Source: a virus. Taken from it: a stretch of DNA of 64,000 bases. The stretch lies in IMG/VR virus record IMGVR_UViG_3300045988_152178; one strand, 5' to 3'. Under the pieces are notes generated by a model that saw only the letters and a list, made by a program, of their open reading frames with translations, did no database searches and had not been told where the DNA came from. Shown here piece after piece: positions 15,443 to 63,891 of this stretch; the stretch's first letter is position 1; each line of letters starts with the position of its first letter. Position numbers and translations under genes: made by a program.

Positions 15443-15465
15443 ATTTTGATATAATTTCTAATTTC

Positions 15466-15702
15466 TCATTTCTCCTTTACCCTCCCCACATGCCATTTCT
15501 GGCAAGTCTTGCACTGATACGCTACATACCCTTGCGCCTTCAGTTCTGGTTTTTGGTTCAGAAACTCCCAGGCGGCATCTTCTGTTTCGTATGTCACCTT
15601 CGCCTTCCAGGTATGCTGCTTTCGGGTGTAATGTTCTGGGTCCGGAGTAAAGGGAGGAACCTTGTTGTGGTAGTGATGATCACCATTGCGCTTACTCATC
15701 AT
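15466..15702 (-). CDS. small protein with C-terminal CxxC (78 aa)
   Basis: Start trimmed to the ATGATG overlapping the upstream stop (GATGATGAGTAA). YQCKTCQKWH. Confidence 0.5.
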   Translation of the reverse strand: MMSKRNGDHHYHNKVPPFTPDPEHYTRKQHTWKAKVTYETEDAAWEFLNQKPELKAQGYVAYQCKTCQKWHVGRVKEK

Positions 15703-16522: not shown

Positions 16523-17373
16523 TTACAATGTTAAATCAATACCAAACTGACCTTCTAGGAACTTCTTGAAATCCGGTTTACCGAATAGCGTGCCGTTCGC
16601 CTTTTCCCAATCTTTATTGTTGGCATAGAATACATCACGCGTAAACCATTCGTAAATGTTATCGTATCTGCTTATTGCTGGCGAGTCAGGATGTGTATCT
16701 AAAAATTTCTGTCCGGCACGCAGATAAGCCTTGGCTATGCGGGGATGCTTCTGAAACTCGATAAGGCGTTTGTGTCTTGAAGCCAGCGGGCAGCACATAC
16801 AGCCGAGTCTTCGGGTAACGTCGATTTGCCCCCCGTATCATAATATACTGGTGCCAGCTTCAATCCTCTGTCGAGAATGAAATCCCTTACGTCTTCATTA
16901 GTCCACTCTAAGATAGGGTAAATCTGCTCCACATGGTTCTCTTCTTTCTTTGCACCAAAATATCGGCACTCGGTAGGCTCATTATATCTTTCCTTTCTTG
17001 CTCTGCTTTCTTCTTTGCGCACACCGATAACGGTTTTATCGAGGATTTTATATTCCTTCAGAACCTCACAGCAGAAACGACTGAAGCGATTAGGGAACCC
17101 TTTCTTTGCGACAAGCTGAAAGAAATTCTCTTTAGGTCTGATAATTTCCACACCCATCTCCTTCACGTGGGCGATAGTGCCCGGTGGGTCGATGGTGGTG
17201 TTCTTGTATATCGCCCGATACTTGATACCGGCTTCCTTAGCGAGTTGAAGAATCACATCACTATCTTTACCGCCCGAATAAGCCAGTTCTATATCTCCAT
17301 CGTACCTTTTCTGTACGCTTTGCAGGAGACGGATAGACTGCTCTATCTTTTTCTGTAATTGCTCGTTTATCAT
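16523..17373 (-). pseudogene. PAPS reductase / PP-loop family gene split by a frame break in a G6 tract
   Basis: N-terminal ORF 16735..17373 has the PP-loop SGGKDSDV. The family motif RLGCMCCPLAS is in the -1 frame (ORF 16523..16798). The frames meet at C6/G6 16829..16834. Confidence 0.7.
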
Positions 17374-27230: not shown

Positions 27231-28307
27231 ATGTTTGAGGAGATATGTTCCATCTATCGGGATGCGAAAGATGCACTTGGAAGATACGTCGATATGGAGA
27301 CGGGCGAGTGCATCCAGCAGATGTCTATCCGTGAGTTCTGTCTGACGGACAGATGGAAGCCGTATGTAGAAAAACTTCGAGCCATGCGGCAGGAATTTGG
27401 CAGCAAGGCTAAGAAGATGCCGGAATACGTAGATACCAAGAAGATGCTTCCTGGTGCCACACTGAGCGGTCTCTTCGCTACCTACGAGGACGATAGCCTT
27501 ACCCATCCAGGCCAACGTGTGATGGTTTCCCGAAGAGAAAGCCATCTGCAGCAGCATACCGGATGGCTCACCATCGACATCGACCTTCAGGACAACCAGC
27601 AGCTTACCAGCTTTGAGAATATCCGCATGGTGTCTCGCTTTCGTCCAGAAATCGGTTTGCTGATGCGTTCTTGTTCGGGTACCGGATATTTCGGATTGGT
27701 TCGCCTGGCTTATCCCGACAGGCATAAGGAGCAGTTCAAGGCTATCCTCAAGGAATATTCCGCCCTGGGTATCGTGCTCGATAAGCAGTGTGGCAATATC
27801 GGACGTGTGCGCTTCGCCTCATGGGATGATGCAGACCACATCTATATTAATACTCATGTGCAGCCTTATCAAGGTTTGGCGACAGATGAACCGCAGGTGA
27901 TACCACAAGCAAGACCGATGTATCGGCAACCGCAGAGTAACGCCTCCAGCGCTTACGGTAATGGCTACGACAATAAAGCCTTCTGGAATGATCCTCGCAC
28001 GCAAGACCGCATCATCGAACTCATCGTAAAAGCACTGGTGAGCCGACGTATCAACATCACGGAAAGTTACGATGAGTGGACCAAGGCAGGTTGGGCATTG
28101 AAGGCGCATCCCTACGGCGAGCGTCTGTTTCACGAGCTTTCGGCATGCAGCCGGAAGTACAACGCTGCCCAGGTATCACAGAAGTGGCGGCAGCTAGGCA
28201 GCAGCCATACCATAAGCTATCATTACCTTATCCATGCCTGCAAGGTGAATTTAGGCGAAGGAGAATATCACTCTATCCTGCAGCAAGTATGGAGAGAAAG
28301 AGGCTAA
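27231..28307 (+). CDS. primase-like replication protein (VirE_N/BT4734-like N-terminus, PriCT-like C-terminus)
   Basis: C-terminal SYDEWTKAGWALKAHPYGERLFHELSACSRKYNAAQVSQKWRQL resembles the PriCT motif. Adjacent to the iteron region. Confidence 0.55.
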   Translation: MFEEICSIYRDAKDALGRYVDMETGECIQQMSIREFCLTDRWKPYVEKLRAMRQEFGSKAKKMPEYVDTKKMLPGATLSGLFATYEDDSLTHPGQRVMVSRRESHLQQHTGWLTIDIDLQDNQQLTSFENIRMVSRFRPEIGLLMRSCSGTGYFGLVRLAYPDRHKEQFKAILKEYSALGIVLDKQCGNIGRVRFASWDDADHIYINTHVQPYQGLATDEPQVIPQARPMYRQPQSNASSAYGNGYDNKAFWNDPRTQDRIIELIVKALVSRRINITESYDEWTKAGWALKAHPYGERLFHELSACSRKYNAAQVSQKWRQLGSSHTISYHYLIHACKVNLGEGEYHSILQQVWRERG

Positions 28308-28635: not shown

Positions 28636-29169
28636 ATGAAATTGATAACGATTATTGGCCCCTCTGGGGCTGGCAAGGACACGGTGGCACTCATGTTGTC
28701 TGTCATCCTAGGCTATGATGTGCTCTGTTCCTACACCACCCGTCCGATGCGGGAAGGCGAAGTTGACGGCAAGGAGCATCATTTTGTCAAGGAATGCAAC
28801 GTTCCCAAAAGCGAAATGCTTGCTTATACCCGATACGGAAACTATGAGTATTGGACGGAGAAGAAGCAGGTAGATGGTGCAGCCATTTACGTCATCGACG
28901 AGAAAGGACTGATGGAGCTGATGGAGCGTTACCCGAAGGTTAAGATCATCACCGTTTATGTTTCGGCAAAGCCGGAAACTCTGAAGAAACGTGGTATCTC
29001 CGAGGAACGTACCGACAGAGATCAGTATCGTGTTCAGATTGATGTCAACAGCTACGATTATGTGATACCGAACAACCGCACGATGTTCCATCTTTGGGAC
29101 TACGTTTCTTTCGTAGCCAAGAAGATTAGGGAGCAGGAATTGGGTATACCTAATCATGCTGTAAAGTAA
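28636..29169 (+). CDS. guanylate kinase-like nucleotide kinase
   Basis: P-loop GPSGAGKDT and TTRPMREGEVDGKEHHFV. Confidence 0.8.
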   Translation: MKLITIIGPSGAGKDTVALMLSVILGYDVLCSYTTRPMREGEVDGKEHHFVKECNVPKSEMLAYTRYGNYEYWTEKKQVDGAAIYVIDEKGLMELMERYPKVKIITVYVSAKPETLKKRGISEERTDRDQYRVQIDVNSYDYVIPNNRTMFHLWDYVSFVAKKIREQELGIPNHAVK

Positions 29170-29383: not shown

Positions 29384-30283
29384 ATGAAAATGATAATTCC
29401 TGGTGTTGAGTGGTGGCCTCAGAAGACCGCCGCACAACAGATTGCCCGAGTAGGCAGAATTTGCTACAAGAGCAAAGGTAAGCAGCCTGATGAGAATCTT
29501 TCTGAAGACAAGAAAGGAGCGTTTCTGGAAGAACAGGCAGTAAAGTTGGCCAACCGTTTCTGGGAGAGCGGTCATCGTTCCATGTACCGCCATGGCACCC
29601 TCTATTTCTTCGTCAAGAACGACAGTAAGCTGCCCAAGCATCTTTGGTCTTTCCTTGTTGCATCGCCTTACATCAATTATGCAGTGCAGGGAAAAAAAGT
29701 CTGGATCAGCAGCAATATGCAGTTCCTATGCGAGCATGGCAACATACTCGAAATGCTGTCCCCATTCAATGTGAAGGAAGCCGAGTTTATCGAGAAGGCG
29801 CTGAAATATGATTTCAAGGAAGCACTCAATCTCCTCCGTATGACGCTTGTCGTTACTACGCAGATCAGTACTAGCCGTGAGCTGAACCGAACATCGCCTA
29901 ATTGCATCAGCGAGCAGAGCACACGCTATGTGAACCTGGAGAAGAAAGGTGGCGTTCAGATTGCCCGTCCGCACTGGCTGCACGAGGGCACGAAATGGCA
30001 GAAGTTCCTCTATCTCACCGGCTGTAAGATTTCCGACTGGCTCTATCGCCGATTACTGAAATCGGGCATGAAGCCGCAGGATGCCCGCGGCATTCTCCCT
30101 CTCGATACCTATACGGTGGTAGCCTATACTTACACCATCACCGAGTGGCAGCATATCTTAGACCTTCGCTTCCGTGAAACCACCGGCAAGGCGCATCCTA
30201 ATGCCAAGGAGATAGGTTTCGAGATCAACCGCATCATCACGGAGAGATTAATGTTCGAGGCTCAAAAGAAATCTTTTAGATAA
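29384..30283 (+). CDS. ThyX-family (flavin-dependent thymidylate synthase-like) protein with non-canonical motif
   Basis: ARVGRICYKS, SGHRSMYRHGTLYF, SEQSTRY and EWQHILDLR blocks fit ThyX. The RHR-X7-S motif reads RTS-X7-S. Confidence 0.65.
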   Translation: MKMIIPGVEWWPQKTAAQQIARVGRICYKSKGKQPDENLSEDKKGAFLEEQAVKLANRFWESGHRSMYRHGTLYFFVKNDSKLPKHLWSFLVASPYINYAVQGKKVWISSNMQFLCEHGNILEMLSPFNVKEAEFIEKALKYDFKEALNLLRMTLVVTTQISTSRELNRTSPNCISEQSTRYVNLEKKGGVQIARPHWLHEGTKWQKFLYLTGCKISDWLYRRLLKSGMKPQDARGILPLDTYTVVAYTYTITEWQHILDLRFRETTGKAHPNAKEIGFEINRIITERLMFEAQKKSFR

Positions 30284-30340: not shown

Positions 30341-30730
30341 ATGGCAAAAATGACTTTAAACGAATATCAGCAGAAGGCAATGACAACCTGCCTTCCTGAG
30401 AGTAATAACCTCTTTTATATGCTCGCCAACCTCTGTGGCGAAGTAGGCGAATTTGCAAGCAAGGCTGGCAAGCACATGCGCAAGGGCAAGCTCCATATCA
30501 CCACCACCGAACGTGATGAGGATGGCAAAATCTGCCACACCCAAATCTGGAACGTAACCGATGAAGAGCGCAAGCTGATGCTTTCCGAAATCGGCGATAT
30601 TCTTTGGCAGACCGCAGGACTTGCCCACGTGATGGGTGTAAGCCTCGAAGAAGTAGCCGAGGAGAACCTGGCAAAACTAGCAAGCCGCCAGCAGCGCCAC
30701 GTGATAGCCGGTGATGGCGATGAGCGATAA
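30341..30730 (+). CDS. mazG: MazG-like nucleoside triphosphate pyrophosphohydrolase
   Basis: LNEYQQKAMTT, GEVGEFASK (ExxE), EIGDILWQ (ExxD), EENLAKLASR. Confidence 0.8.
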   Translation: MAKMTLNEYQQKAMTTCLPESNNLFYMLANLCGEVGEFASKAGKHMRKGKLHITTTERDEDGKICHTQIWNVTDEERKLMLSEIGDILWQTAGLAHVMGVSLEEVAEENLAKLASRQQRHVIAGDGDER

Positions 30731-37497: not shown

Positions 37498-38403
37498 ATG
37501 GAACTAAGACATTTACGTTCGTTCGCGTATGTGGCAGAGACGCTTTCTTTCAGTATCGCCGCCACCCGATGCTTTGTCACCCAATCTGCCATCAGTCAGC
37601 ACATCAAGGCTCTGGAGGATGAACTGGGATGCAAGCTGCTGATACGCACATCGCACAGCATCATGCTCACCGAGAATGGGGAGGCACTTCTGCCACGTGC
37701 CAAGGAAATACTGAAGTTGACGGAAGACTGCAAGGAGCATATCAATGCAATCAACAACTGCATGACCGGAGAACTGCGCATCGGTGTAGGTTCCTTTATC
37801 GCCCCCTATATCCGTGTGGCTGCACTTATATTCATGGAGCGATACCCTAACGTAAGAGTGAATGCCGAATTTACCAAGGCAACGAGCCTGAACCGCCTGT
37901 TGCGAGACCACATGCTGGATCTTGCTTTTACGATGAACGAAGCCTATACCAACGAGGGTATCGAGAGCCAACCCTGCATCCCATTCAGTATTTGTGCTAT
38001 TATGAGAAACACACACCCTCTTGCCAGGAAAGATAAGGTAATATACGATGACCTGCTGAAGCACGGCATCATCATGCCCGATGTAGGCGAACGTATTTTC
38101 AACACCTTTCAGCAATACCTGCAGAACGATTTCGCCAAATTAAATGTAAAGTGTATCGTGAGCGATCCAAACGAAGACCTTGCCATCATAGAAGATACTC
38201 ACCTGGTTACTTTTATGCCGAAGCTGTATCTGAAGAACCACCCTACCCTTATAGCTCGTCCTATCCAGTGCATAGGAGAAGAACTGATGAGCAATGCCCA
38301 CTGGATGAAGGATGTACCTATGAAGCGTTCCGCACAACTCTTCCTCGACATTATCAGGGACGAAGCCATCCCGTATATCAAGGCTTTGGAAGAAACTATG
38401 TAG
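37498..38403 (+). CDS. LysR-type transcriptional regulator
   Basis: Canonical N-terminal HTH MELRHLRSFAYVAETLSFSIAATRCFVTQSAISQHIKALEDELGCKLLIR plus a substrate-binding-type C-terminal domain. Has its own promoter. Confidence 0.85.
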   Translation: MELRHLRSFAYVAETLSFSIAATRCFVTQSAISQHIKALEDELGCKLLIRTSHSIMLTENGEALLPRAKEILKLTEDCKEHINAINNCMTGELRIGVGSFIAPYIRVAALIFMERYPNVRVNAEFTKATSLNRLLRDHMLDLAFTMNEAYTNEGIESQPCIPFSICAIMRNTHPLARKDKVIYDDLLKHGIIMPDVGERIFNTFQQYLQNDFAKLNVKCIVSDPNEDLAIIEDTHLVTFMPKLYLKNHPTLIARPIQCIGEELMSNAHWMKDVPMKRSAQLFLDIIRDEAIPYIKALEETM

Positions 38404-42005: not shown

Positions 42006-43106
42006 ATGAATGAACAGATAAACCTCACCATCCCCCGCGGCTGGAACCAATGCACTCCCTCCCAGTTGGAAGCCCTCGCTGCCATCATGCAGGAGCAGAT
42101 AGCCAAGGTGGACCGCTACCATCCTTTCGATATGCAGAAGGTGAAGATAGCCGTCTTTTTCCTCTTTGCCGGGATAAGCATCAATGCCTATCCCGACCCT
42201 CGCGACCCCATCAATGAGCAGCACTACTTGGTAAGCATAGAGCCGCAGAAGAAGCGCTTCCTGAAGAAGCTCCTCTCCCTCTGCACCCCCGTTCCCAGCG
42301 ATTCCATCGCTGGTCCCCAGTCGGCTAGCAACTTTCCCCTCTATCTTTGGCAGATCAACTATTGGCTCTCCCCGAAAGCCAAGACCAACGATAAGACCGC
42401 CCCTGAGTACATCGCTCAGGGCGCAGGTCTTCTCGATTGGCTGGATGCAGATAGTGGCAATTTCCTCACCCGTTTCCCCTATCCATCTATCCGGCAGAAA
42501 TCCAAGTGGTATCGTCGTGCAAAAACCTTCCAAGGTCCGCACCCCGATCTCGATGGTTTCTCTTGGCAGCAGTACCGTTTTGCCAGCGACATGATGCAGA
42601 CCTACACCAAGTTAAGCAACAACCTGGTAAAGATGAAGAAGATGGATAAATTCACCGAGGAACAACTCCAGACGCAAGCCCAGAGTGTAGCCAGTGCAAG
42701 AAACATGTTCCTTGCCACCATCTTCAACACCACCACCCAGTACGTCGATCCGACAACAGGCATCACGAAATACGATTTTCACTACGAGTCGAAGCAGTTC
42801 ACCGAGAACGCAGGTTATTTCGTCAAATACCCGGAAACCAATTGGCAGGTCATCCTCTTCTGGTGGAGCGGCATCATGCACACCCTAGCCCATCGCTACC
42901 CTCACGTGTTTAAGGTGCAGAAGTTAAGCAAAAGCAAGCCGCAAACCCCGATGGAAATCTACACCGCCACCACCGCCACGATGCAGAAGTATGCCGGTCT
43001 AACGGAAGATCAGGTCAACACCCAATCCTATTCCCTCGTTCTCGAACACCTAGAAAGGTTGTCGAAAGAGAATGAGGAAATGGAAAAGATGAGGAGAGGG
43101 AAATGA
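42006..43106 (+). CDS. hypothetical protein carrying an in-frame copy of the hairpin repeat
   Basis: 366-aa uninterrupted ORF. Repeat copy F (42286..42316) is translated as PVPSDSIAGP. Confidence 0.6.
   Translation: MNEQINLTIPRGWNQCTPSQLEALAAIMQEQIAKVDRYHPFDMQKVKIAVFFLFAGISINAYPDPRDPINEQHYLVSIEPQKKRFLKKLLSLCTPVPSDSIAGPQSASNFPLYLWQINYWLSPKAKTNDKTAPEYIAQGAGLLDWLDADSGNFLTRFPYPSIRQKSKWYRRAKTFQGPHPDLDGFSWQQYRFASDMMQTYTKLSNNLVKMKKMDKFTEEQLQTQAQSVASARNMFLATIFNTTTQYVDPTTGITKYDFHYESKQFTENAGYFVKYPETNWQVILFWWSGIMHTLAHRYPHVFKVQKLSKSKPQTPMEIYTATTATMQKYAGLTEDQVNTQSYSLVLEHLERLSKENEEMEKMRRGK
42286..42316 (+). repeat. hairpin repeat copy F, inside CDS 42006..43106
   Basis: CCCCCGTTCCCAGCGATTCCATCGCTGGTCC in frame within an uninterrupted ORF. 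Confidence 0.9.
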
Positions 43107-43127: not shown

Positions 43128-44156
43128 ATGAATATAGGTTTAATAGATGTAGATGGGCATCATAAAAAGAAAAAAATCGGCGCTACGGTTTACCCTAATC
43201 TCGCGTTAGGTAAACTAGCACGCTGGCATATAATGCAGGGCGATAATGTAGAGTGGGCGCAACCTATAAATCTTTTCGATCATCAGCATTATGATATACT
43301 TTATGCTAGCAAGGTGTTCAATTTTTCGCCTGATGTTGATTTCTCTCAGTATTCCTACGATAAGTTGGTAAAAGGTGGAACTGGATATGACATATATAGC
43401 AGTTTGCCGACCGAGGTAGATAGCCTGCAACCTTATTATGAGCTTTTTCCCGATATACCCAAGAATACGGCTTATGGCTTCCTTACAAGAGGCTGCCCTA
43501 ACAAGTGTTCCTGGTGTGTGGTTCCTAAAAAAGAAGGTGTCATCCGTCCTTATATGGATATAGAAGAAATCGCCATCGATGGTAAGGATCATGTGGTATT
43601 GATGGATAATAACATTCTTGCTGCAGGAGATTATGCGAGGCTGCAGCTTCAGAAGATTATAGACCTTGGTTTGCGTATAGATTTTAATCAGGCGATGGAT
43701 GCACGATTAGTAACCCCTGAGTTTGCTTCCTTGTTGGGTAAGGTGAAGTGGATAAATAATCGCATCCGTTTCGGTTGTGATACTACACCACAGATAAAAT
43801 CCTGCGAGCGGGCCATGCAGATGATAAATGATGCTGGCTTCAAGGGCGAATATTTCCTGTATACGATGGTAGGCGGTAAAAACGATTTTAAAGAATGTTA
43901 TAACCGCATTCATTATTGGTGGCAGCGGTTGCAAGACTTCCGTCGCGACCATATCGGCAGGGCAGTTTATGCTTATGCGCAGCCATATAGAGACCCCATG
44001 AACCCCAACAATGCAATACCGCAGTGGCAAAAGGACTTGGCGAGATGGTGCAACAAGCGAATGTTGTTCTGCAAGGTGGATTTTAAAGATTTTTCTCCGA
44101 GAAAGAACTTCACGTGCCAGGAGTATCTTTTGAAGCTAAAAAAGCAGCAAGGATAA
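43128..44156 (+). CDS. radical SAM protein
   Basis: FLTRGCPNKCSWCVVP CxxxCxxC motif. The N-terminal region resembles a truncated B12-binding-like domain. Confidence 0.75.
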   Translation: MNIGLIDVDGHHKKKKIGATVYPNLALGKLARWHIMQGDNVEWAQPINLFDHQHYDILYASKVFNFSPDVDFSQYSYDKLVKGGTGYDIYSSLPTEVDSLQPYYELFPDIPKNTAYGFLTRGCPNKCSWCVVPKKEGVIRPYMDIEEIAIDGKDHVVLMDNNILAAGDYARLQLQKIIDLGLRIDFNQAMDARLVTPEFASLLGKVKWINNRIRFGCDTTPQIKSCERAMQMINDAGFKGEYFLYTMVGGKNDFKECYNRIHYWWQRLQDFRRDHIGRAVYAYAQPYRDPMNPNNAIPQWQKDLARWCNKRMLFCKVDFKDFSPRKNFTCQEYLLKLKKQQG

Positions 44157-44219: not shown

Positions 44220-44256
44220 TTTGTCCCCACTAAAACTATAAAAACCCCTAACTTTA
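44220..44256 (+). promoter_or_regulatory. weaker member of the promoter family (portal operon)
   Basis: TTTGTCCCCACTAAAA, 25-nt gap, TAACTTTA (G to A in the -7 box). Confidence 0.35.
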
Positions 44257-48623: not shown

Positions 48624-49277
48624 ATGGCAAAGAATAAAGAAACCACAGAACAGCGCACGCAGCGTTTCAAGACCCTTTGCGTCAATATCCTCGCCCAGAG
48701 TGGCAACTGCCAGGAATCGCAGCATGCCTTCAAGAGCACGCAAAGCATTCCCGATATGTGCGAGGCATGGCGAAAGTATTGGCACGGCTTAATCACCGAG
48801 GTACCGCAGCAGGTAATCGATGCTTTCAGGGCAGTATATCCGGAGTTTAAGGCAGATATTAACCAGGGCGGCATTTTCTATAATGAAGACTCGCCTACTG
48901 GTACCGTCCTCGTAGGCGATACAGACGAGGAAATCCATCTCTATTCCTCCCGAAAGATATACGTCTTAGGCAAGGCACACGTCATCCTCCATAATGCCGC
49001 TACCGCCCTCGTAATGAATGAAGGCTGCAAGGTAGAGCTATTGGATGGCAGCAAGGCAACCATCAAGGCAGGTTACGGCATCGCCCGAAATTATGCCCAC
49101 CTGGTAACATGCAACGAGGCTGAAAGCTACGACCAGAGTGTAGTCTTCATCACAGATGGCACCCTTCACGACCATGGGCATCAGAAAATCAATGCCTTTG
49201 GTACGGCACTCATCGACACCTTCACCCGTCGCCTCATAGACTTATACGATAACGCAAAAATAGAAATCAGAATATGA
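48624..49277 (+). CDS. hypothetical protein
   Basis: 217-aa ORF with ATGA overlap with the next gene. Confidence 0.65.
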   Translation: MAKNKETTEQRTQRFKTLCVNILAQSGNCQESQHAFKSTQSIPDMCEAWRKYWHGLITEVPQQVIDAFRAVYPEFKADINQGGIFYNEDSPTGTVLVGDTDEEIHLYSSRKIYVLGKAHVILHNAATALVMNEGCKVELLDGSKATIKAGYGIARNYAHLVTCNEAESYDQSVVFITDGTLHDHGHQKINAFGTALIDTFTRRLIDLYDNAKIEIRI

Positions 49278-52180
49278 ACTCACATCTCTCTATATTAATC
49301 AATGATAAGCCGGTGGCACTCCCCGATGATTTCTCCATCGACATAGAGGATCAGAACCCCGTATTCAACGATACGGAAATGTTCTCCTATCCTTTCTCTA
49401 TTCCGCTGGACGGCAACCGATGGCTGGTAAAGAACATCGAAGATATTCATGCCGCCATGAAAGCCGTGAATATGGAGCACCTGCCTACTCGCATTCATGC
49501 CGACGGACTGCCTTTCCGTAGCGGTACATTGGTCATGCAGGACGATGAGGAAATAACCGACTCACTCAGCATGAACATCGATGCCAGCACCCAGAGCTTC
49601 AGCGAGCTTATCAGCGACCTGCAATGCCGTGATATTCCGGTAAAGGACCAGCTTATCATCGGCGAGAAAATTGGTAATGTGAGGGTGGATATTTGGAGTA
49701 ACCCGGTAGTAAAAGTCAACCTCCATTCCGATGGTAAGAAAGGTGGAAAGAATACCACCGCCACCGTTACGACCGACCCATTGAGAGCTAGTAAGGTGCT
49801 GGAACCCCAGGCACTCGGTTTCTCCTATCCCGCAAGCTGCAAGGAATATACCTCTACTGATACGGCACACTATATCGGCGATGCCTACAACAAGAGTAAG
49901 AAATCTTATTCTTCTGGTGCGATAACAATCAATGTACCGCAAGAGACTGCCAACGGCAACTATATTAATACCTCGGCAGCCTATGACGAGACGGATGGCG
50001 CTGGCAGACCTGCTACCTACTGCAATGCCCGAATCTGTTACAAGCATCATGCCCTGGATGATGAAGGGAATACATCGAGTGACCTCATCAAAATGGATAA
50101 GTGCTCATGGACGAATGAAGACCTCTATCCTTACTGGGTGTTGGATGCCAAACGTCCGCAATCGGGCATCTGCTTCTATGTACTCTATTTCCTCGACTGC
50201 CTCTTTGCCTATTTGGGTGTCACCTTCGATAAACGTGCCCTGCTGGAAATTGAGGATTTGAAACATCTCTGTTTCTTTACTACTGTCTGCGGTTATGATT
50301 CTCTCGAACACCCCCATCACGGCGATTATTACGAAGCAAAGGAAATTCAGGATGCCAAGGACATCATCAACAAGGATGGCTACGTAAAAGGCAGCAATCC
50401 CGAAATGGAAATCGTGGCTGCTAAATCCGTAGGCGAAATCAAGACGGGCTTCTTTAAGGATCAGAAGCATATCAATTCCTGGTTGGAGAGCCGTGGCTGC
50501 GGCGGTCAGATTGAAATCACCAAGGCAGAAGATAAGGACGTGCAGGAACTCGACCTTACGCTGACTGAAAACGGTGTGGCTACCACCCGCCATATCCAGG
50601 TGGGCGAGGTAGTTGCTTTTCCTCCTGGCAAGGGAATGAAAGTAACAGGTATCACCATCGAATCGAATATCAAGAAGTTTGAGGTGCAGGCAAACGTGCT
50701 CTATATGGTTGCCAACAGCGAGAATTTCCCTGACGAGAGCGTGAGCACTGTCATCTCTTCTCTAGAAAACGCATTCGGTATCAAGTTCTCCTACGATTAC
50801 GAGCAGAAGAAGGTAACGGCTTATCTCACTCGCGACGTGATGCGAAAGAGCGGCAGAAAGACAAGGGATTTCCACTGCGAAATCCATTCGATGATTCCGG
50901 TGACCGAGAAGATTACCGGTGTGCGTATGCGCTACTCTGCCGAAGCTGATGCCAAGGAACAGAAGAGTTATATGCGAAACGCCAAGGGCGAATATCTCGA
51001 TTCCAGTTACGATACCGATTATAACTATATCGACTACCCTCTACCTGATGGCGAATCCAGCAAGATGGGTAGAACCGTCACCGATATGAAGTACATTGAG
51101 TTCTTCCATAACATCCATAACCCTAGTGATAAGAACTGCTACATCGACCGTAACACCGGTAATGCCTATCGTGTAAAGGTCAACAAGGAGGCAAAGACTT
51201 CCAACGAGTTAAAGCCAGTACTCTTTGAGGTAGGTCAGTTCAAGGGTGTGGAATATGGAGATTGCAGTGAGGAGAACGAAGATTTTATTCACGATATTAG
51301 TATTGACTTTACGCCTGTACCTTTCAACGATGTGAATTACTTTAAGGAAGTAAAAGCTGCCTATGGTACCCATACCGCTGATGTGACTGACTTTGAAGGC
51401 AAGCCTTTGCTAAAAAGTGTAGTGCAGATTACAGAGGCTCAACAACCTATCCTCTGCGCTTATGTAGATGAGGATATGGAGCATGAGTTTGTATTGCAGG
51501 AGATTAACCAGGTTATCTCTTCTTCTTTCTGTGATTTCTACATGAAACAGAAGTTAAAGCTCGTGGAAAGCTACGACCCTTCGGGCACGGATGATGGCAA
51601 CTCACCCTTGCAGGATAAGTCACGATGGGGCTTTGCCGTGGCATTAATGCGTGGTGGCGGTAGTGATGCCACCCTGCAACCCTACGATTATAACTACGAC
51701 CATTTCGGCACATCCAAATGGCGAACCAATGCCGGACAGTATGCCTTGGCTTGCGATTCACTGGATATGATGGGCAATGTGTTTGATTATAATGGTGTGC
51801 AGGAAGGTGTAGGCACCGGCGAACGTTTCTCGCTGAAGATACGAGCCTTTAAGGAACCATCGTGGCTGAAAGATCCGAAGTATAAGGATTTGGTACTCTG
51901 CAATGCCGATGAAGTAGATAAAAACGGCAAGGTAGTGACTAAAATCCGCTCCCGTGGTCTATTCGATACCTTCATTCTCCCATACGCCTACTTCCTTCTG
52001 AATAGGAAGAAGTTTATGGTAAGATGCACCACCACCGTAGCGCAAGTGGCAGATATACCCAATCACTGGCAGGATTGGTGGAATATAGGCGGTATGAAAT
52101 GCCTCATTGACAAGGTGAATACCACCATCGATGCTAAGACGGGCATGGGCGAAGTAGAGTTAACGGTGTATGCCCTCTAA
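49274..52180 (+). CDS. large virion/tail-associated protein (968 aa), hypothetical
   Basis: Size and position upstream of the fibre genes. Confidence 0.65.
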   Translation: MNSHLSILINDKPVALPDDFSIDIEDQNPVFNDTEMFSYPFSIPLDGNRWLVKNIEDIHAAMKAVNMEHLPTRIHADGLPFRSGTLVMQDDEEITDSLSMNIDASTQSFSELISDLQCRDIPVKDQLIIGEKIGNVRVDIWSNPVVKVNLHSDGKKGGKNTTATVTTDPLRASKVLEPQALGFSYPASCKEYTSTDTAHYIGDAYNKSKKSYSSGAITINVPQETANGNYINTSAAYDETDGAGRPATYCNARICYKHHALDDEGNTSSDLIKMDKCSWTNEDLYPYWVLDAKRPQSGICFYVLYFLDCLFAYLGVTFDKRALLEIEDLKHLCFFTTVCGYDSLEHPHHGDYYEAKEIQDAKDIINKDGYVKGSNPEMEIVAAKSVGEIKTGFFKDQKHINSWLESRGCGGQIEITKAEDKDVQELDLTLTENGVATTRHIQVGEVVAFPPGKGMKVTGITIESNIKKFEVQANVLYMVANSENFPDESVSTVISSLENAFGIKFSYDYEQKKVTAYLTRDVMRKSGRKTRDFHCEIHSMIPVTEKITGVRMRYSAEADAKEQKSYMRNAKGEYLDSSYDTDYNYIDYPLPDGESSKMGRTVTDMKYIEFFHNIHNPSDKNCYIDRNTGNAYRVKVNKEAKTSNELKPVLFEVGQFKGVEYGDCSEENEDFIHDISIDFTPVPFNDVNYFKEVKAAYGTHTADVTDFEGKPLLKSVVQITEAQQPILCAYVDEDMEHEFVLQEINQVISSSFCDFYMKQKLKLVESYDPSGTDDGNSPLQDKSRWGFAVALMRGGGSDATLQPYDYNYDHFGTSKWRTNAGQYALACDSLDMMGNVFDYNGVQEGVGTGERFSLKIRAFKEPSWLKDPKYKDLVLCNADEVDKNGKVVTKIRSRGLFDTFILPYAYFLLNRKKFMVRCTTTVAQVADIPNHWQDWWNIGGMKCLIDKVNTTIDAKTGMGEVELTVYAL

Positions 52181-52186
52181 CTCCCT

Positions 52187-52220
52187 CTCGCCCCCGTTCC
52201 CAGCGATTCTATCGCTGGTC
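52187..52220 (+). repeat. hairpin repeat copy H
   Basis: CTCGCCCCCGTTCCCAGCGATTCTATCGCTGGTC, 7 nt after the 968-aa gene stop and upstream of the KS gene. Confidence 0.9.
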
Positions 52221-52252
52221 TCACAATAAGAAACATAAAAAACGAAATAAAA

Positions 52253-53461
52253 ATGAATAAAGAAATTTTGATTACCGGAACCGGTATTCATTCTGCCCTA
52301 GGCAGAAGTACCAGAGAAGTAGCCATGAACCTTTATAAGGGTAAATGCGGATTACATCACGACGAATGCCGTGATAAATACAATTCCGATTTATGCGGCA
52401 ATGTGCCTGTCTGGATAGAAGAATATAACGAAATTCTCACTCGTGCGCAGAGAGCATGCCTTCCCCTTCATGGCTTTTATGTACTCGATGCAGTATTTGA
52501 AGCCTTAAAGAAAGCCAAGGTAAGTAAGGATTTTCTCGAAAATCATAACGTGTCTATTATCGTAAGTAATGATTCTGAATGCTACGAAAGTCGGTCGGTG
52601 GTGCATCATATAGGTCAGGAAGTACATAACAGAACATTGTCTGTAGAAACATTGTTTCGCTCGCTCAATTCTACTATCAGCATGAACCTTGCATCTATCC
52701 TTCATATTCATGGCTTATCACTTACCGTGAGCGCAGCCTGTGCAGGAGGTGGCCACGCCATCGGACTTGCCAAGATGTTGCTCGATAGCAAGCAGACGGA
52801 AATGGTAATTGTGATTGGCGCGCAGGAATGCGGATCTCAATATTGCATGGAAGCTTTTGATGCCCTCGGTGTTTTCTCACCCGATAACGTACAGCCGTTC
52901 GGCAAAGGCAGAAATGGACTGGCACCATCGGGTGGCGCAGCCTGCATCATTCTCGAACCATCGGATAGTCTTCGTCTGAAAGAAGAGAAGGTGCATTCCT
53001 TCGCTTCTCTTTCCGGTTATGGCTTCTCTACCAATGGAAAAGCTGTCACTACCCCTGATAGCTATCAGGAAGAAGTATCTATGCTGAATGCTATCGAGAA
53101 CGCTGGTCTGGACGAAGGTATGATAGACGTAGTACTTGCTCATGCTACCGGTACCCCGATGGGCGATGAAGCCGAGGCAAAGGCAATAGAGAGAATTTTC
53201 CCTATCTGTCCGAACGTAGTGGCAACAAAGGGCATGACAGGTCACGAATGTTGGATGGCAGGTGTATCGCAAGCCGTACAAGCCGTAATCATGTTCACTT
53301 ATGGCCGTCTGTTCCATGCAGCCACCACCGAGGAGAACGCCTTCCCGAAACTTAACCTGGTGATGCGCCCTAAGTATTACGATCCTCATCATATCCTCTG
53401 TAATGCCTTCGGCTTTGGGGGTACAAACTCATCATTTGTCATTTCAAAAGTAAAAAAGTAA
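52253..53461 (+). CDS. beta-ketoacyl-ACP synthase (KAS I/II, FabF/FabB-like)
   Basis: Active-site Cys in TVSAACAGGGHAIG (Cys163), His in LAHATGTPMGD (His297), Lys/His in TKGMTGHECWMAG (His331), and PFGKGRNGLAPSGGAACIILE. Confidence 0.85.
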   Translation: MNKEILITGTGIHSALGRSTREVAMNLYKGKCGLHHDECRDKYNSDLCGNVPVWIEEYNEILTRAQRACLPLHGFYVLDAVFEALKKAKVSKDFLENHNVSIIVSNDSECYESRSVVHHIGQEVHNRTLSVETLFRSLNSTISMNLASILHIHGLSLTVSAACAGGGHAIGLAKMLLDSKQTEMVIVIGAQECGSQYCMEAFDALGVFSPDNVQPFGKGRNGLAPSGGAACIILEPSDSLRLKEEKVHSFASLSGYGFSTNGKAVTTPDSYQEEVSMLNAIENAGLDEGMIDVVLAHATGTPMGDEAEAKAIERIFPICPNVVATKGMTGHECWMAGVSQAVQAVIMFTYGRLFHAATTEENAFPKLNLVMRPKYYDPHHILCNAFGFGGTNSSFVISKVKK

Positions 53462-53478
53462 AAAGGTAAAAAAGGTAA
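53446..53478 (+). repeat. A-rich motif overlapping the KS stop
   Basis: AAAAGTAAAAAAGTAAAAAGGTAAAAAAGGTAA. Confidence 0.7.
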
Positions 53479-53479
53479 C

Positions 53480-53731
53480 ATGAAAAAAGAAAAAATAAGC
53501 TCTCGCATTATCACCATCGTGAACAGCCTGAAAACATCGTGGGTAAAACACGAAGTAACCCTTGCCTCTAATCTCCGTGACGAGGTAGGGCTGGAATCTA
53601 TTGATTTCCTCGATATGATCCAGCAGGTGGAAATGATGTTCCACATCAAGATTACCCCGGAAGAGGCGAAAGATTGCAAGCTCGTTTCCGATGTAGTGAA
53701 TCTCGTAATTTTAAAAGTGGTAAAAAGGTGA
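53480..53731 (+). CDS. acyl carrier protein
   Basis: 83 aa. Phosphopantetheine-site-like GLESIDFLDMIQQVE (Ser40), 18 nt after the KS stop. Confidence 0.75.
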   Translation: MKKEKISSRIITIVNSLKTSWVKHEVTLASNLRDEVGLESIDFLDMIQQVEMMFHIKITPEEAKDCKLVSDVVNLVILKVVKR

Positions 53732-53736
53732 AAAAC
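53713..53736 (+). repeat. A-rich motif overlapping the ACP stop
   Basis: AAAAGTGGTAAAAAGGTGAAAAAC. Confidence 0.6.
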
Positions 53737-53743
53737 AAGAAAT

Positions 53744-54805
53744 ATGGCACAGAAAATCAATCTCACATCGGGTTCCGTCTTTGCCGGAAACCCGATAACC
53801 TTTACCATCACCCCCTCCGTGGCTACGAATCCATCCTTCCATCGGGTCATCGTGGAAGTGCATTTCGATGATGGTACGGGCAGTTACGAAACCAATAAGC
53901 TCACCATCCCCGTTACTACCGAGGGAAGAGATGTATCGCTCGATATATCCTCTGCTCTCCGCATTACGCTGGATAGCTACAAGTATACCGCTACTCCATC
54001 CACCTACCCCGTGGTAAGCTGGTACATTAAAGCCTACGATGAGTATATGGATAATAACGGCGAGGTGCATACCAATACGGGCGAAGTCTATTATCCTGCC
54101 GATGGCTCGAAGAATAAAGGTGAAACCAACCTCCGCTGTATAGCCGGAGCCTTTAGCGATATAGAGCGCCTGAAGTCGGGCGTAACTAAGGCTGTCACCC
54201 TTCTCTCCTGCAAGCCGACAGCTACCTACGAAATAGCCGTTGTAGGCGAGAGCTTTGTTTACCCGGTATCATATAGCGCAGGTCAGAACCTAGCCACCAG
54301 CAGCTCATTGACCGCCCCTGCATCCGAGGAACAGGCAATCACGAAAGAAGGTGCGCAGAGCATTCATGGACACCTTGTCTATGCCCTACCCTCTTCTGAA
54401 GCTGAAGACCGAACCACCTTCCGCTTCATTAACCGCTTCGGTTGTCTGGAGAGCATCAGTGTTCCGAAATCCTATTCTCAGAAGTTGAACGTAACAACTA
54501 CAGAGTATACGGAAGCAGTACAGGAAACCTTCAATGAGTTCTCACGCTCGGCTATAGATAAGCAGAACGACAAAGAAGGCTGGCTTTACCAAAGCGACCC
54601 TTTAACCGAAAAATGGCTGCGATGGTATTATCACGAGTTCCTGATGAGCAAGCATGTATGGTTAAAGGTAAACGACATCTGGCTCCCTTGTACTATCGCC
54701 CTGAATGATGAGATCACTATCAAGGATAAAACCAACAAGGTTATGCACTCAGTTTCCTTTACCGCAAAGCTCGGTATCAATGGCAACCCTTTCACTTCCA
54801 TCTAA
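53744..54805 (+). CDS. hypothetical virion protein
   Basis: 353-aa ORF, followed by repeat copy I with a T-run. Confidence 0.65.
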   Translation: MAQKINLTSGSVFAGNPITFTITPSVATNPSFHRVIVEVHFDDGTGSYETNKLTIPVTTEGRDVSLDISSALRITLDSYKYTATPSTYPVVSWYIKAYDEYMDNNGEVHTNTGEVYYPADGSKNKGETNLRCIAGAFSDIERLKSGVTKAVTLLSCKPTATYEIAVVGESFVYPVSYSAGQNLATSSSLTAPASEEQAITKEGAQSIHGHLVYALPSSEAEDRTTFRFINRFGCLESISVPKSYSQKLNVTTTEYTEAVQETFNEFSRSAIDKQNDKEGWLYQSDPLTEKWLRWYYHEFLMSKHVWLKVNDIWLPCTIALNDEITIKDKTNKVMHSVSFTAKLGINGNPFTSI

Positions 54806-54830: not shown

Positions 54831-54872
54831 CTCGCCTCCGTACCCAGCGATTCTATCGCTGGGTTCTTTTTT
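54831..54872 (+). repeat. hairpin repeat copy I with extended stem and T-run (terminator-like)
   Basis: CTCGCCTCCGTACCCAGCGATTCTATCGCTGGGT with a 10-bp stem, then TCTTTTTT. Confidence 0.85.
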
Positions 54873-54906
54873 GTCCCCACTAAAAAAGCGAAAACCTTTA
54901 TCTTTG
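54870..54906 (+). promoter_or_regulatory. promoter, TTTGTCCCC-N-TAnnTTTG family (fibre genes)
   Basis: TTTGTCCCCACTAAAA, 25-nt gap, TATCTTTG. Confidence 0.5.
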
Positions 54907-54933: not shown

Positions 54934-57069
54934 ATGGCAACAGAAGCAAAAAGTACGAACTATTGGATTTCGAGCACCGCACTCTATATCCAGCTCAATG
55001 CGATGGGAGAGCCTGACTACATCCAGTGTAGTGTAGTATCGGGTGCCTCTGTCCTCTGCTATATGAGCAATGTGCCCGGCTTGGGCTATGATGCCGGCCA
55101 CAACTATCAGCGCTGGACGCTTGCTGCCTACCCTTCTATCTTTCCTGATAGCGAACGGAAATATGTGTATATCGCTATTCCTCGACAGCCTACCATGGAT
55201 AACAACCAGGCTACCGTCGTGTTTCCTGGTGAGAAGATAGATATTTATGGTAAGACTATTCCATCTTCCGGAACTGAAGGTGTGCAGATAGGCAACGAGG
55301 CCTACTATTATATCTTTACAGGCGGTATCATATCTGCCGTAAAGACCGATGCCGACAATACCAGAAAGCGAGAATGGGAACAGCATTTTGACTGCGGTAA
55401 ACTGGCTACCGACGAGGCGATAGCCAGCGGCGGTGAAGGCGCATGGTGGCGGTATAATTCCGTATCAGATACCATCACCTTTCTCAAGGAAATTCTGAAG
55501 GCAACCTTTAATGAATTATCGGCGAAGGTGGCACATATTACCAGTCTTTTCTTAGGTGGGCATGAACTGAAGGGCGTTGCTGACAGTAACGACACCCTGG
55601 AAACAAGCAATGATACCGTAGTTACCCCTCAGTATCTCGGTCAGTTTGGCGTAAAGCATTTCCTTGCCAAGGATAAGGATGATGTGGCTGCAGGCTTAAT
55701 CACCTTTCTGAAAGGCTTGCGTTTAGGCAAATCGACTAAATACTACATAGATGGAAACGGAAACGCTATCCTGTCTGATGTGAATGTGAAGCTTTTGAAG
55801 TCGTTCGATTTCAGGGAATCAGAGCAAACGGGCTTTGCAATCAAGCAAAGAAGTGATGGCAAGTATCAGATGTTGCTCACAGACTTCATTGTATGGGGAA
55901 AAGCTGTCTTTAATGAGCTGGAGACAAGGAAGGTTTCTTACGCTGGAGGTAATATTAACCTCTCCGGTGCTGGCAGTAAACTAGTAAAGGTTGTACCAGT
56001 TGTCTATAATAGAGAGGTTGATGAATACATCACATCTACAGACGAAGAGTGCGATGGTTGGAAATGTTACTTCCTCGCAGACGATGGCACAACGGCTACA
56101 CAGAACTGGTGGATGGTCGGCGACCAGGCAAGATGTCAGACCTTTAACATTAAGCCTGGAGTTTACGACAACGTATCTAACAAGGAATACTGGAGGTGTG
56201 TTGTCGCGATTTCTTCCGAGAGCGAGTATATTGTAGATAATAATGGAGAAAGCCTTTATGGCGACAAGAAATTCGACTGGGTTATTCTTTCTAGGACTAA
56301 TTGCTTAGTGAATAGCGATATTCCAGCTTCGGGGGATGCTATTGTCCTCGATGGTCATCAGGTAAAAACGGGAGAAGAGAGCAGTATCAGCAGGACTAAT
56401 GTTCTCATGCTTGAATCAGCCGGTGCAGACACCCCTCGCATCGTTGGATATAAAGGCATTACTGACTTTACTCACAAAGACAAGGAGGTATTCATTATTT
56501 CACCAAGCAATGTGACAATATCATCATCCGTGTTCAAATTCAAGAGTGCGAGCGGACAAGATATTACTATCATTAATGACAGAGGTGCTTATGATGCGGC
56601 GACCGACTATTATTATTATGACAGGGTAAGCTACGATAATGCCTATTGGACTTTTATCTATAACGGAGATAAGCAGCCTGTTAAGGGTATTACTCCTACA
56701 GAGAAAGCGGTTAATGGTACTGTATATTGGCGAAAGGATCTGTCTGGTGGTATCAAAGGCGACGACGGTGTGGCTTATCAGGTGATGATAACGAGCGATA
56801 CTGGCACGGTGATGATTAACGGCTCGGGGAAAATGACGCTCAACGCTACGCTGCTGCGCAATGGCGAAGACATAAGTGACACTATCAGCAACAGTTCGTG
56901 GTCATGGTGGCGACAGTCGGCTGACGCTGAAGACGATGCTGTATGGAACACGCTGCATGAGGGCGTGGGGCGCTCGTGTCTTATCACACGTGACGACGTG
57001 AGCAGACAGGCACAATTCGGATGTCGTGTGTATATATCAGAAGTGAAGACTATAGATAGCAACATATAA
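54934..57069 (+). CDS. tail fibre / receptor-binding-type protein with C-terminal Ig-like module
   Basis: 711 aa with its own promoter. The last approx. 100 aa resemble the modules of 57096..58139 (ends FGCRVYISEV). Confidence 0.6.
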   Translation: MATEAKSTNYWISSTALYIQLNAMGEPDYIQCSVVSGASVLCYMSNVPGLGYDAGHNYQRWTLAAYPSIFPDSERKYVYIAIPRQPTMDNNQATVVFPGEKIDIYGKTIPSSGTEGVQIGNEAYYYIFTGGIISAVKTDADNTRKREWEQHFDCGKLATDEAIASGGEGAWWRYNSVSDTITFLKEILKATFNELSAKVAHITSLFLGGHELKGVADSNDTLETSNDTVVTPQYLGQFGVKHFLAKDKDDVAAGLITFLKGLRLGKSTKYYIDGNGNAILSDVNVKLLKSFDFRESEQTGFAIKQRSDGKYQMLLTDFIVWGKAVFNELETRKVSYAGGNINLSGAGSKLVKVVPVVYNREVDEYITSTDEECDGWKCYFLADDGTTATQNWWMVGDQARCQTFNIKPGVYDNVSNKEYWRCVVAISSESEYIVDNNGESLYGDKKFDWVILSRTNCLVNSDIPASGDAIVLDGHQVKTGEESSISRTNVLMLESAGADTPRIVGYKGITDFTHKDKEVFIISPSNVTISSSVFKFKSASGQDITIINDRGAYDAATDYYYYDRVSYDNAYWTFIYNGDKQPVKGITPTEKAVNGTVYWRKDLSGGIKGDDGVAYQVMITSDTGTVMINGSGKMTLNATLLRNGEDISDTISNSSWSWWRQSADAEDDAVWNTLHEGVGRSCLITRDDVSRQAQFGCRVYISEVKTIDSNI

Positions 57070-63486: not shown

Positions 63487-63891
63487 TTAATTATCTAATA
63501 GTACCACTCCCACCCTTACTTTCTTGCCGCAGTGAGGGCAGAAGGTGGAAGTCTGAATCATCTGCTGCTGCTGGTTTTCTGATACCAGTCCGTTTTCGTG
63601 AACCGGATAGGCTGGCTCATTTTCTGCTACATCCTCGTTTTCTTTCTTGTCAGCATTCGAGAAAAGATCATCCTTTTCGTTTGTCGGGAAGAACATATCA
63701 CGAGGGTCTATATCCAAAGCCATAGCTATGCGATAGATAGTGTTTGTCGTTAATGACTTGTTGCGGAGGAACTGCGACATTGATTGCGATGACATGCCGC
63801 ATTTCTCAGCGAACGCATTGGTACCCAAACCTAACTTTTGCATCAGTTTGCGAAGATTGATTTCCGATTTTGGCTTAATATTTTCTTTCAT
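63487..63891 (-). CDS. XRE-family HTH transcriptional regulator with C-terminal zinc-ribbon-like CxxC
   Basis: LRKLMQKLGLGTNAFAEKCGMSSQSMSQFLRNKSLTTNTIYRIAMAL is an HTH_3-type helix-turn-helix. FCPHCGKK. Start trimmed to ATG 63891, 40 nt below the -7 box. Confidence 0.75.
   Translation of the reverse strand: MKENIKPKSEINLRKLMQKLGLGTNAFAEKCGMSSQSMSQFLRNKSLTTNTIYRIAMALDIDPRDMFFPTNEKDDLFSNADKKENEDVAENEPAYPVHENGLVSENQQQQMIQTSTFCPHCGKKVRVGVVLLDN

Follow-up and report, generated by a model that had tools for sequence, protein, structure and literature searches.

Condensing enzymes catalyse the committed step in which the chain of a fatty acid or polyketide is built and, to our knowledge, are almost absent from characterised phages. 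In this work we have analysed a gene pair for a beta-ketoacyl-acyl carrier protein synthase (KS) and an acyl carrier protein (ACP) in the IMG/VR virus record IMGVR_UViG_3300045988_152178, a stretch of 64,000 nucleotides (64 kb) that is referred to below as the window. The window belongs to a tailed phage, as seen from a head-maturation protease, a tape-measure protein, tail and tail-fibre PHROG matches, a GH108 lysin and a holin. The span under study, 52187-53743, is the whole interval between the stop of gene p968 (52180) and the start of gene g53744 (53744), and is occupied by two genes:

52253..53461, + strand: KS, beta-ketoacyl-ACP synthase, 402 aa (Pfam, NCBIfam, alignment to PDB structures, AlphaFold (AF2) model with Foldseek)
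53480..53731, + strand: ACP, acyl carrier protein, 83 aa (PF00550, phrog_5934)

Predicted properties of the ketosynthase

An earlier note on this DNA, made from the sequence alone, had described the 402-aa open reading frame (ORF) as carrying a Cys-His-His triad, and this was borne out by Pfam, by alignment to FabB and by invariance of the residues in 60/60 orthologues. The three domains named in that note, PF00109, PF02801 and, for the ACP, PF00550, were all found above the Pfam gathering cutoff (20.8 bits), the KS matching PF00109 with E = 1.9e-24 (87.1 bits) and PF02801 with E = 3.9e-18 (66.0 bits). The assignment of Cys163, His297 and His331 as catalytic residues also held up in an alignment with solved FabB structures and E. 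coli FabB, in which they correspond to C163, H298 and H333 of FabB. In the same alignment KS Lys326 corresponds to FabB K328, Thr299 and Thr301 to T300 and T302 of the malonyl-binding Thr-x-Thr motif, and Phe388, the gatekeeper within GFGG, to F392; Asp305 and Glu308 align as well. Cys163, His297, Lys326 and His331 are the same in every orthologue, and 152 of the 402 KS positions are invariant across the orthologues.

The AF2 model of the KS, built on an input alignment of 24 sequences, has a pLDDT of 90.1 and a pTM of 0.92 and superimposes on V. cholerae FabB (4xox_A) with a TM score of 0.92 and an rmsd of 2.2 A (Foldseek). Two polyene-forming type II polyketide synthase (PKS) ketosynthases, 6kxd (ishigamide) and 7f27, are among its structural neighbours. 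With E. coli FabB and FabF the KS has in common the fold (TM 0.92 and ~0.90-0.93), the Cys-His-His triad, the Lys, the Thr-x-Thr motif, the gatekeeper Phe and GFGG. It differs from them in its identity, only 22-27% (22-26% in a comparison with FabB, FabF and a Salmonella KS), in the signature TGHECWM where FabB and FabF have TGH[S/L]LGA, and in a shorter loop before the (R/Q)PF motif. Its scores also stay below the NCBIfam equivalog cutoffs (161.6 versus 493.75 bits for fabF, TIGR03150; 161.4 versus 630 bits for FabB, NF005935). The KS is therefore predicted to be a full-length FabB-fold (KAS I-like) decarboxylating condensing enzyme of the homodimer type, with the triad and the Lys intact, and not an orthologue of the housekeeping FabF or FabB.

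Predicted properties of the acyl carrier protein

The 83-aa ORF with an ACP-type serine motif, noticed earlier 18 nt after the KS stop, was likewise confirmed as an ACP gene by PF00550 (E = 1.1e-6, 29.2 bits versus the cutoff of 20.8), by conservation of its serine and by a PHROGs match to phrog_5934. The phosphopantetheine-attachment residue, Ser40, lies within GLESIDFLD at the position of the DSL serine in other ACPs; it is retained, as LES[I/L]D, in every distinct ACP orthologue. The protein scores below every curated NCBIfam ACP cutoff (best 43.7 bits versus 66) and, with E values of 1e-8 to 3e-6 for ACPs of flexirubin clusters and 1e-4 for E. coli AcpP, is slightly closer to the former. 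By these comparisons it is predicted to be a divergent, specialised acyl carrier protein. The gap between the two genes varies among relatives from -4 to +363 nt, the commonest arrangements being a 2-nt gap or a 4-nt overlap (32 of the 60 measured loci).

The calculated isoelectric point (pI) of the ACP in the window is 7.9, owing to its Lys-rich termini; the ACPs of a distant subclade have a pI of ~4.5 and typical ACPs of ~4. Acidic helix II of ACPs normally docks onto partner enzymes, and the charge of this ACP is unusual for a protein class that docks in such a way.

Conservation and authenticity of the locus

A KS-based scan of IMG/VR gave 62 loci, mostly on viral contigs of 85-110 kb, of which 60 were full-length. 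The order g44347-g46206-g47503-g48624-p968-KS-ACP-g53744-fibre is kept in 60/60 full-length loci, with KS identities of 60-97%, and because this flanking gene order recurs, the locus is not an assembly chimera. At 90% identity or more the KS proteins fall into 120 clusters, many of them on ~100-kb contigs; one orthologue is labelled in nr as 'MAG TPA: hypothetical protein [Bacteriophage sp.]'. The dN/dS values of KS (0.10) and ACP (0.14), set beside 0.07-0.12 for neighbouring core genes, point to purifying selection on both genes.

A chimeric assembly, or host DNA in a viral contig, was considered for the pair, as most KS matches in GenBank 'phage' records (INPHARED, tblastn) are host contamination. 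The best of them, GenBank MT837464.1 ('Bacteriophage sp.', 6.8 kb; L063 or H1 in our set), looks like a Bacteroidota chromosomal fragment and carries a UpxY/NusG-like antiterminator, FabG and a flexirubin-type KS followed by lipoproteins. For the pair studied here the chance of such an origin is practically nil: the junctions recur in 60 independent viral contigs of ~100 kb at 60-97% identity, the GC content of the KS-ACP locus is unremarkable, the hairpin and A-rich leaders proper to this phage are present, and no cellular copy exceeds 41% identity among the best 80 GTDB loci. The synteny across the 60 loci had in itself already refuted contamination, and the view that the pair is phage-resident and not host DNA stands. 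In INPHARED, megablast of the 49-56 kb region and tblastn of p968 and of the major capsid protein-like protein gave no match.

Accessory nature of the cassette

When loci were fetched a second time through g53744 instead of the KS, 79 were obtained, 59 of them with KS and ACP upstream of g53744 and 17, forming a sister clade, without. The KS-less contigs (51-101 kb) carry p968 and g53744 homologues that are 43-47% and 43-51% identical to those of the window; in the five junctions inspected g53744 starts 12-100 nt after the p968 stop, with no KS, ACP or hairpin in between. Absence of the KS from the 17 sister-clade contigs was judged from motif-based scans, and none of them occurs among the matches of the KS scan either. 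The presence or absence of the cassette among otherwise syntenic phages provides natural controls for its role.

In distant relatives of ~90-107 kb, which have a common backbone (homologues of the window genes win18819, the giant win19452, primase win27231 and ThyX win29384), the pair is reversed, with ACP before KS. There it is located between a giant gene resembling that for a tape-measure protein (TMP) and the primase, beside a win42006 homologue, or after a fibre gene. One 55-kb phage-like contig (L069) carries a ketoreductase (KR) gene, KS and ACP in this order, and three viral contigs of ~160-175 kb carry KS followed by ACP in unrelated contexts, a fourth having a KS with no ACP detected. 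On these jumbo-sized IMG/VR contigs (L395, L399, L404 and L405, 160-175 kb) the KS is 33-35% identical to that of the window, and three of the four have an 82-aa ACP after it. KS and ACP are adjacent in all contexts with enough flank.

Between lineages the KS is 38-43% identical and the backbone genes are 32-48% identical; as the divergence of the KS lies within the backbone range, long-term retention with relocation and loss is suggested. The pair is thus best described as a predicted optional and mobile two-gene insertion between p968 and g53744, not as a component of the tail. Since the insertion is optional and located elsewhere in relatives, its position in the tail cluster is not indicative of a tail or virion function, and the earlier suggestion drawn from that position was not borne out by the 17 KS-less junctions and the other sites in relatives. 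What recurs is an intact KS with its own ACP, fixed in one abundant gut-phage clade and met again in several other large-phage lineages.

Ancestry in flexirubin and aryl-polyene clusters

An exhaustive HMMER search of 1.84 billion representatives found the closest standalone relatives of the KS to be all of the TGHECWM type. In GTDB, searched with one genome per species, the best 80 of at least 592 loci are all on Bacteroidota chromosomes, with KS identities of 36-41%, and no prophage copy of the locus was found among these 80; among the taxa are Flavobacterium, Chryseobacterium, Sphingobacterium, Chitinophagaceae, Bacteroidales, Tannerellaceae and Paludibacteraceae. The gene order in Flavobacterium sp. 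NRK1 (L249) is aromatic amino-acid ammonia-lyase, a small WG-repeat protein, KR (a short-chain dehydrogenase/reductase, SDR), KS and ACP, followed by a lipid-A-type (LpxL-like) acyltransferase, an FAD oxidoreductase and, further on, a FabH-like enzyme. The published flexirubin cluster encodes FlxA, a tyrosine ammonia-lyase (TAL), the reductase FlxB and the ketosynthase FlxC, and makes its polyene by a type II fatty-acid synthesis (FASII)-like route (PMC3992019). Since the gene order of NRK1 matches the layout of that cluster, the cellular KS loci are regarded as flexirubin-type.

The window KS falls within the TGHECWM clade, whose members are found beside TAL, KR and ACP in Bacteroidota. In a neighbour-joining tree of 403 columns with 300 bootstraps, rooted on two FabF sequences, the window clade is supported by 100% of the bootstraps, a second phage-associated group by 98%, and the two phage groups together by 90%; the flexirubin-type clade has 100% and all TGHECWM KSs together 92%, E. 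coli FabB joining at the next node (100%). The place of the KS among condensing enzymes, which the earlier note had left to a phylogeny, was thus examined against FabB and FabF, and the nearest sequences proved to be flexirubin-type KSs, an ancestry absent from that note. We infer from these sequence comparisons that the cassette descends from the KS-ACP pair of Bacteroidota flexirubin/aryl-polyene clusters.

The phage pair resembles the FlxC-type KS and its ACP (PMC3992019) in identity (36-41%), in TGHECWM, in the order of KS before ACP and in the FabB-like fold. The bacterial pair, however, is part of a cluster of ~20 genes (TAL, CoA ligase, KRs, dehydratases (DHs), several KSs, an LpxL-like transferase, export), whereas the phages retain only KS and ACP, with the KR in addition in one lineage, and their KSs form a separate clade. 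Flexirubin genes (ammonia-lyase, CoA ligase, KR, DH, LpxL-like transferase, DarA/B) were found neither in the window nor in the rest of the genome, and among viral loci flexirubin-cluster partner genes beside the KS were likewise absent, except for the KR of L069. As enzymes the two are ordinary; the novelty lies in a minimal, phage-fixed cassette with flexirubin-cluster ancestry.

This ancestry raises the possibility, an unlikely one, that the phage pair plugs into a putative host flexirubin/aryl-polyene pathway, where it would replace or boost a FlxC-like KS/ACP step or make a short polyene with the host KR and DH. The outcome would be an altered polyene lipid of the outer membrane, which might for example protect the infected or lysogenic cell from oxidative stress or change the cell surface. 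It would agree with the nearest cellular homologues being the KS-ACP pair of such clusters in the same order, with the polyene-forming ketosynthases 6kxd and 7f27 as structural neighbours and with the retention of the KR, in the cluster order KR-KS-ACP, on one phage-like contig. Such a cluster is carried by metagenome-assembled genomes of gut Bacteroidales, Tannerellaceae and Paludibacteraceae (e.g. L309, L279, L322, L324), and the phage, to judge from its ParA, Rep-like and CI-like genes, may lead a temperate or plasmid-like life, in which host-modifying genes pay off. However, the phage KSs stand in a clade apart and are only ~40% identical to the flexirubin-type KSs, so that substrate specificity may have drifted; the phage is without the ammonia-lyase, CoA ligase, KR, DH and LpxL-like transferase; and expression appears to be late-lytic.

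Search for partner enzymes in the phage genome

With Pfam, 62 ORFs of the window were searched in one sweep and other large proteins separately; the results below refer to the best 25 of 29 families, the rest being weaker than E = 8.5e-5. Among the matches listed there was no phosphopantetheinyl transferase (PPTase), malonyl-CoA:ACP transacylase, SDR/KR, dehydratase, enoyl reductase or thioesterase. The genome circle of ~105 kb was closed through close relatives (window, L188, L201, L075 and back to the window), which added ~41 kb. The 49 ORFs outside the window matched in Pfam only a ParA-type ATPase, DnaN, an Rv2179c-like exonuclease, helix-turn-helix (HTH) repressors, DUF4942, DUF551 and, weakly, Rep3_C, and no partner enzyme of fatty-acid synthesis (FAS) or PKS type was found in this part reconstructed from relatives. 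No acyl-ACP-dependent protein or lipid acyltransferase occurs among the Pfam matches of the whole ~105-kb genome, in which KS and ACP appear to be the only genes of FAS/PKS type.

The sole gene of an acyltransferase superfamily is the following:

10811-11173: GNAT acetyltransferase, YpeA-like, 120 aa, early region

As a partner of KS and ACP it was rejected, being a 120-aa YpeA-like acetyltransferase in the distant early region. The earlier statement that partner enzymes are missing from the window therefore holds for PPTase, FabD, KR and DH among the matches listed, and has to be amended for acyltransferases by this small GNAT.

A radical SAM protein gene (43128-44156, + strand; phrog_9298, 1.5e-87) lies within the late structural block. 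It was rejected as a partner of KS and ACP as well: such a gene is found within 10 kb upstream of the KS in only 2 of 60 loci (L016, L039) and at a different position (14975-16025) in the distant relative L087. It behaves as a second mobile accessory gene. A search of PADLOC-DB v2 assigned none of the eight proteins tested (KS, ACP and neighbours) to a defence family.

Predicted transcriptional organisation and flanking genes

The features that surround the pair are as follows:

44220..44256, + strand: promoter-like motif TTTGTCCCCA then TAACTTTA, motif starts 29 nt apart
49274..52180, + strand: p968, 968 aa, left flank of the KS-ACP insertion, late block
52200..52218, + strand: hairpin CCAGCGAT-TCT-ATCGCTGG, 20 nt after the p968 stop
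53744..54805, + strand: g53744, 353 aa, right flank, starting 12 nt past the ACP stop
54844..54862, + strand: hairpin, second bracketing copy, after the g53744 stop and followed by a T-run, terminator-like
54870..54906, + strand: promoter-like motif TTTGTCCCCA ... TATCTTTG, just past the 54844 hairpin, heading the tail-fibre unit
54934-57069, + strand: tail-fibre gene tf711 (tail-fibre PHROG matches)

The perfect 19-nt hairpin CCAGCGAT-TC[T/C]-ATCGCTGG occurs in eight copies in the window, all on the + strand (27082, 30294, 36431, 41971, 42295, 44189, 52200, 54844), with none expected by chance. Seven of the eight are intergenic, six of these just after a gene stop, and the eighth (42295) falls within the ORF called at 42006-43106, so that this ORF may be two genes. 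The element, probably phage-specific, is likely to act in termination, attenuation or RNA processing; in the five sister-clade loci examined the exact motif was absent. The copy at 52200 is not followed by a T-run, and no promoter motif was found between it and the KS start.

The promoter-like motif, TTTGTCCCCA with TAnCTTT[G/A] starting 29 nt apart, was found at 11179, 17447, 33245, 40674, 44220 and 54870, always on the + strand and ahead of + strand gene blocks, and resembles the Bacteroidota -33/-7 promoter consensus. No copy is present between p968 and KS, so KS-ACP is placed towards the 3' end of a predicted unit beginning near 44.2 kb. The motif at 44220..44256 is the nearest upstream promoter candidate for this unit (g44347...p968-KS-ACP-g53744), and the fibre gene tf711 appears to have a separate putative promoter (54870). 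The position of KS-ACP within a late transcription unit suggests late expression. Earlier it had been proposed that the pair is integrated into the late operon and bracketed by repeat elements. The layout of promoters and hairpins agrees with the former, the pair being in one predicted transcription unit with late structural genes. Of the bracketing, the upstream hairpin (52200) stands; no copy follows the ACP, and since the downstream hairpin (54844) comes only after g53744, the bracketed unit is KS-ACP-g53744 and not KS-ACP alone. The 'A-rich motifs' seen at the two stops are accounted for by Lys-rich C-termini together with A-rich leaders lacking a Shine-Dalgarno (SD) sequence. Gene leaders contain 50% A versus 29% genome-wide, and an SD-like motif precedes only 9 of 73 genes, which is the Bacteroidota style of translation initiation.

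No family match was found for p968 in Pfam, PHROGs, INPHARED (tblastn) or PADLOC; its context suggests a virion protein. The product of g53744, which has no Pfam, PHROG or PADLOC match either, gives an all-beta AF2 model (pLDDT 65) with 86 BFVD matches at E <= 1e-3, among them the 'Structural protein' of Cellulophaga phage phiST and many proteins of uncultured Caudovirales. In PDB it has no significant match, the weak partial ones being baseplate subunits of phages and contractile injection systems and FN3 domains. On the strength of this model g53744 is probably a virion (tail/baseplate-region) protein with a common phage structural fold. The all-beta fold, the many phage structural-type matches and the lack of significant PDB matches led us to reject it as a hidden acyltransferase.

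Among the roles suggested earlier is lipidation of the virion. In this reading an acyl chain would be attached to a tail or virion protein, or KS and ACP would themselves be packaged. The pair does lie within the late structural block and in one hairpin-bracketed unit with the structural-type g53744, and in several distant relatives the cassette adjoins large virion-type genes (giant TMP-like, fibre). However, p968 and g53744 are directly adjacent without the cassette in 17 sister-clade phages, the cassette stands beside replication genes in other relatives, the fold of g53744 is widespread in phages without any KS, and no acyl-ACP-dependent transferase was found in the genome, the YpeA-like GNAT at 10811-11173 being the only candidate by superfamily. 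With a sister clade that lacks the KS, a genomic position that varies and no transferase found, virion lipidation is a highly improbable function of the pair.

Proposed function

NodE (KS) and NodF (ACP) of rhizobia are a dedicated pair that relies on the housekeeping AcpS, FabD, FabG and FabZ to make a special acyl chain. The analogy between this pair and the phage genes, drawn in the earlier note, remains the best mechanistic model, KS and ACP being adjacent and no partner enzymes being listed. Both systems comprise a dedicated KS and ACP with no other pathway enzymes found in the phage either. They differ in that NodFE is on a bacterial symbiosis plasmid with the co-encoded acyltransferase NodA, whereas the phage pair is without a dedicated transferase, and in that the ancestry of the phage KS points to flexirubin-type KSs, NodE being absent from the KS tree.

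We favour, with about as much belief as doubt, a NodE/NodF-like module: late in infection, an acyl chain would be assembled on a private ACP with the help of host FASII enzymes. Since the phage genome has no PPTase among the matches listed, phosphopantetheinylation of the phage ACP would depend on host AcpS, after which host FabD would load it with malonate. The phage KS would condense malonyl-ACP with an acyl primer, possibly unsaturated or aryl; the beta-keto intermediates would be processed by host FabG and FabZ, perhaps also FabI/K, and the chain would grow on the private carrier, apart from the host AcpP pool. The product might then be passed to a host lipid by a host acyltransferase, so that the cassette would have an auxiliary, host-remodelling function and not one in tail assembly.

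Several points weigh against this proposal. Every step beyond an active KS plus ACP is conjectural, and the ACP is divergent for a substrate of host AcpS and FabD, with ES and not DS before the serine and a pI of 7.9 versus ~4-4.5. It is unusual for genes of host remodelling or lysogenic conversion to lie in a late operon and have no promoter of their own, and the function is dispensable in the KS-less sister clade. The KS tree is a neighbour-joining tree with few outgroups and contains no Bacteroidota FabF, NodE or chain-length factor (CLF), and the tentative assignment of the host to Bacteroidota is based on the A-rich SD-less leaders, the promoter motifs, a BT4734-like primase domain and the ancestry of the KS.

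The pair might instead act as a decoy, over-produced KS and/or ACP titrating FabD, malonyl-ACP and AcpS and thereby blocking or rewiring host lipid synthesis. Over-production of FabF is reportedly lethal in E. coli (Subrahmanyam and Cronan 1998). Only two components are encoded, both of which must contact host FASII proteins, and the late transcription unit suggests that they are made late. We consider such a host shutoff very unlikely, as deep divergence has left the catalytic and malonyl-binding residues and the ACP serine strictly conserved, which titration would not need, and KS and ACP are always found together where flank is available.

A further reading, that widespread ~100-kb human-gut Bacteroidota phages have long retained a flexirubin-derived KS and ACP for a phage-specified lipid or short polyene destined for the outer membrane or the virion, is speculative and on balance quite unlikely. 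If true, a phage would for the first time be seen to direct the synthesis of its own specialised lipid with a polyketide-type condensing enzyme, and a phage lipid or polyene in the outer membrane would change receptor exposure, superinfection or oxidative-stress tolerance. More generally, if the pair is active, phages of the dominant gut phylum could rewire host lipid or pigment-lipid synthesis with two genes, with a bearing on outer-membrane composition, phage adsorption and immune-relevant Bacteroidota lipids.

Relation to known phage lipid genes

No family matching the KS was found in PHROGs v4. A full-text literature search gave no description of a KS-ACP pair in Bacteroidota phages, only fabG-acpP-fabF in predicted roseobacter prophages; it thus agreed with the earlier remark that no function has been described for such a pair in a tail cluster. 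The fabG-acpP-fabF trios belong to predicted Rhodobacteraceae (roseobacter) prophages, and the report also cites lipid desaturases of cyanophages (PMC8224337). The phrog_5934 ACPs, these trios and the desaturases are, like the pair studied here, virus-borne host-type lipid genes, auxiliary metabolic genes (AMGs) presumed to reprogram the infected cell. The prophage trios differ in having the host operon order and in being unverified predictions, whereas here a divergent pair is fixed in a phage clade and placed in the late operon.

Other features of the phage genome

A giant 2309-aa protein with a PhageMin_Tail (tape-measure) domain is encoded at 19452-26381 (+ strand), far from the other tail genes and shortly ahead of the primase block; its homologue in distant relatives is directly followed by the ACP-KS cassette.

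A ParA-type ATPase (AAA_31, 6.4e-35), a weak Rep3_C match and HTH repressors of the Cro/CI type are encoded in L188, L201 and L075 and, in the window, at 63487-63891 (- strand). No integrase was found in the Pfam sweeps of the window and of the genome remainder taken from relatives. From this gene content the phage is a candidate phage-plasmid, kept in the cell as a plasmid-like prophage.

The early region (window 1-33000) contains genes of nucleotide metabolism, modification and anti-defence:

98-475 and 7694-8116: YopX, two copies
14058-14825, - strand: N6/N4 methylase
16735-17373, - strand: PAPS-reductase-like protein
27231-28307: BT4734/PriCT_2 primase
28636-29169: guanylate kinase
29384-30283: ThyX
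30341-30730: MazG

The Pfam sweep also detected a protein with a Tad2-like (anti-Thoeris) domain in the window. A full-length LysR-type regulator (37498-38403, + strand; HTH_1 4.9e-21, LysR_substrate 1.1e-24, phrog_3736) is encoded in the middle of the head/tail region, an unusual gene for a phage structural module.

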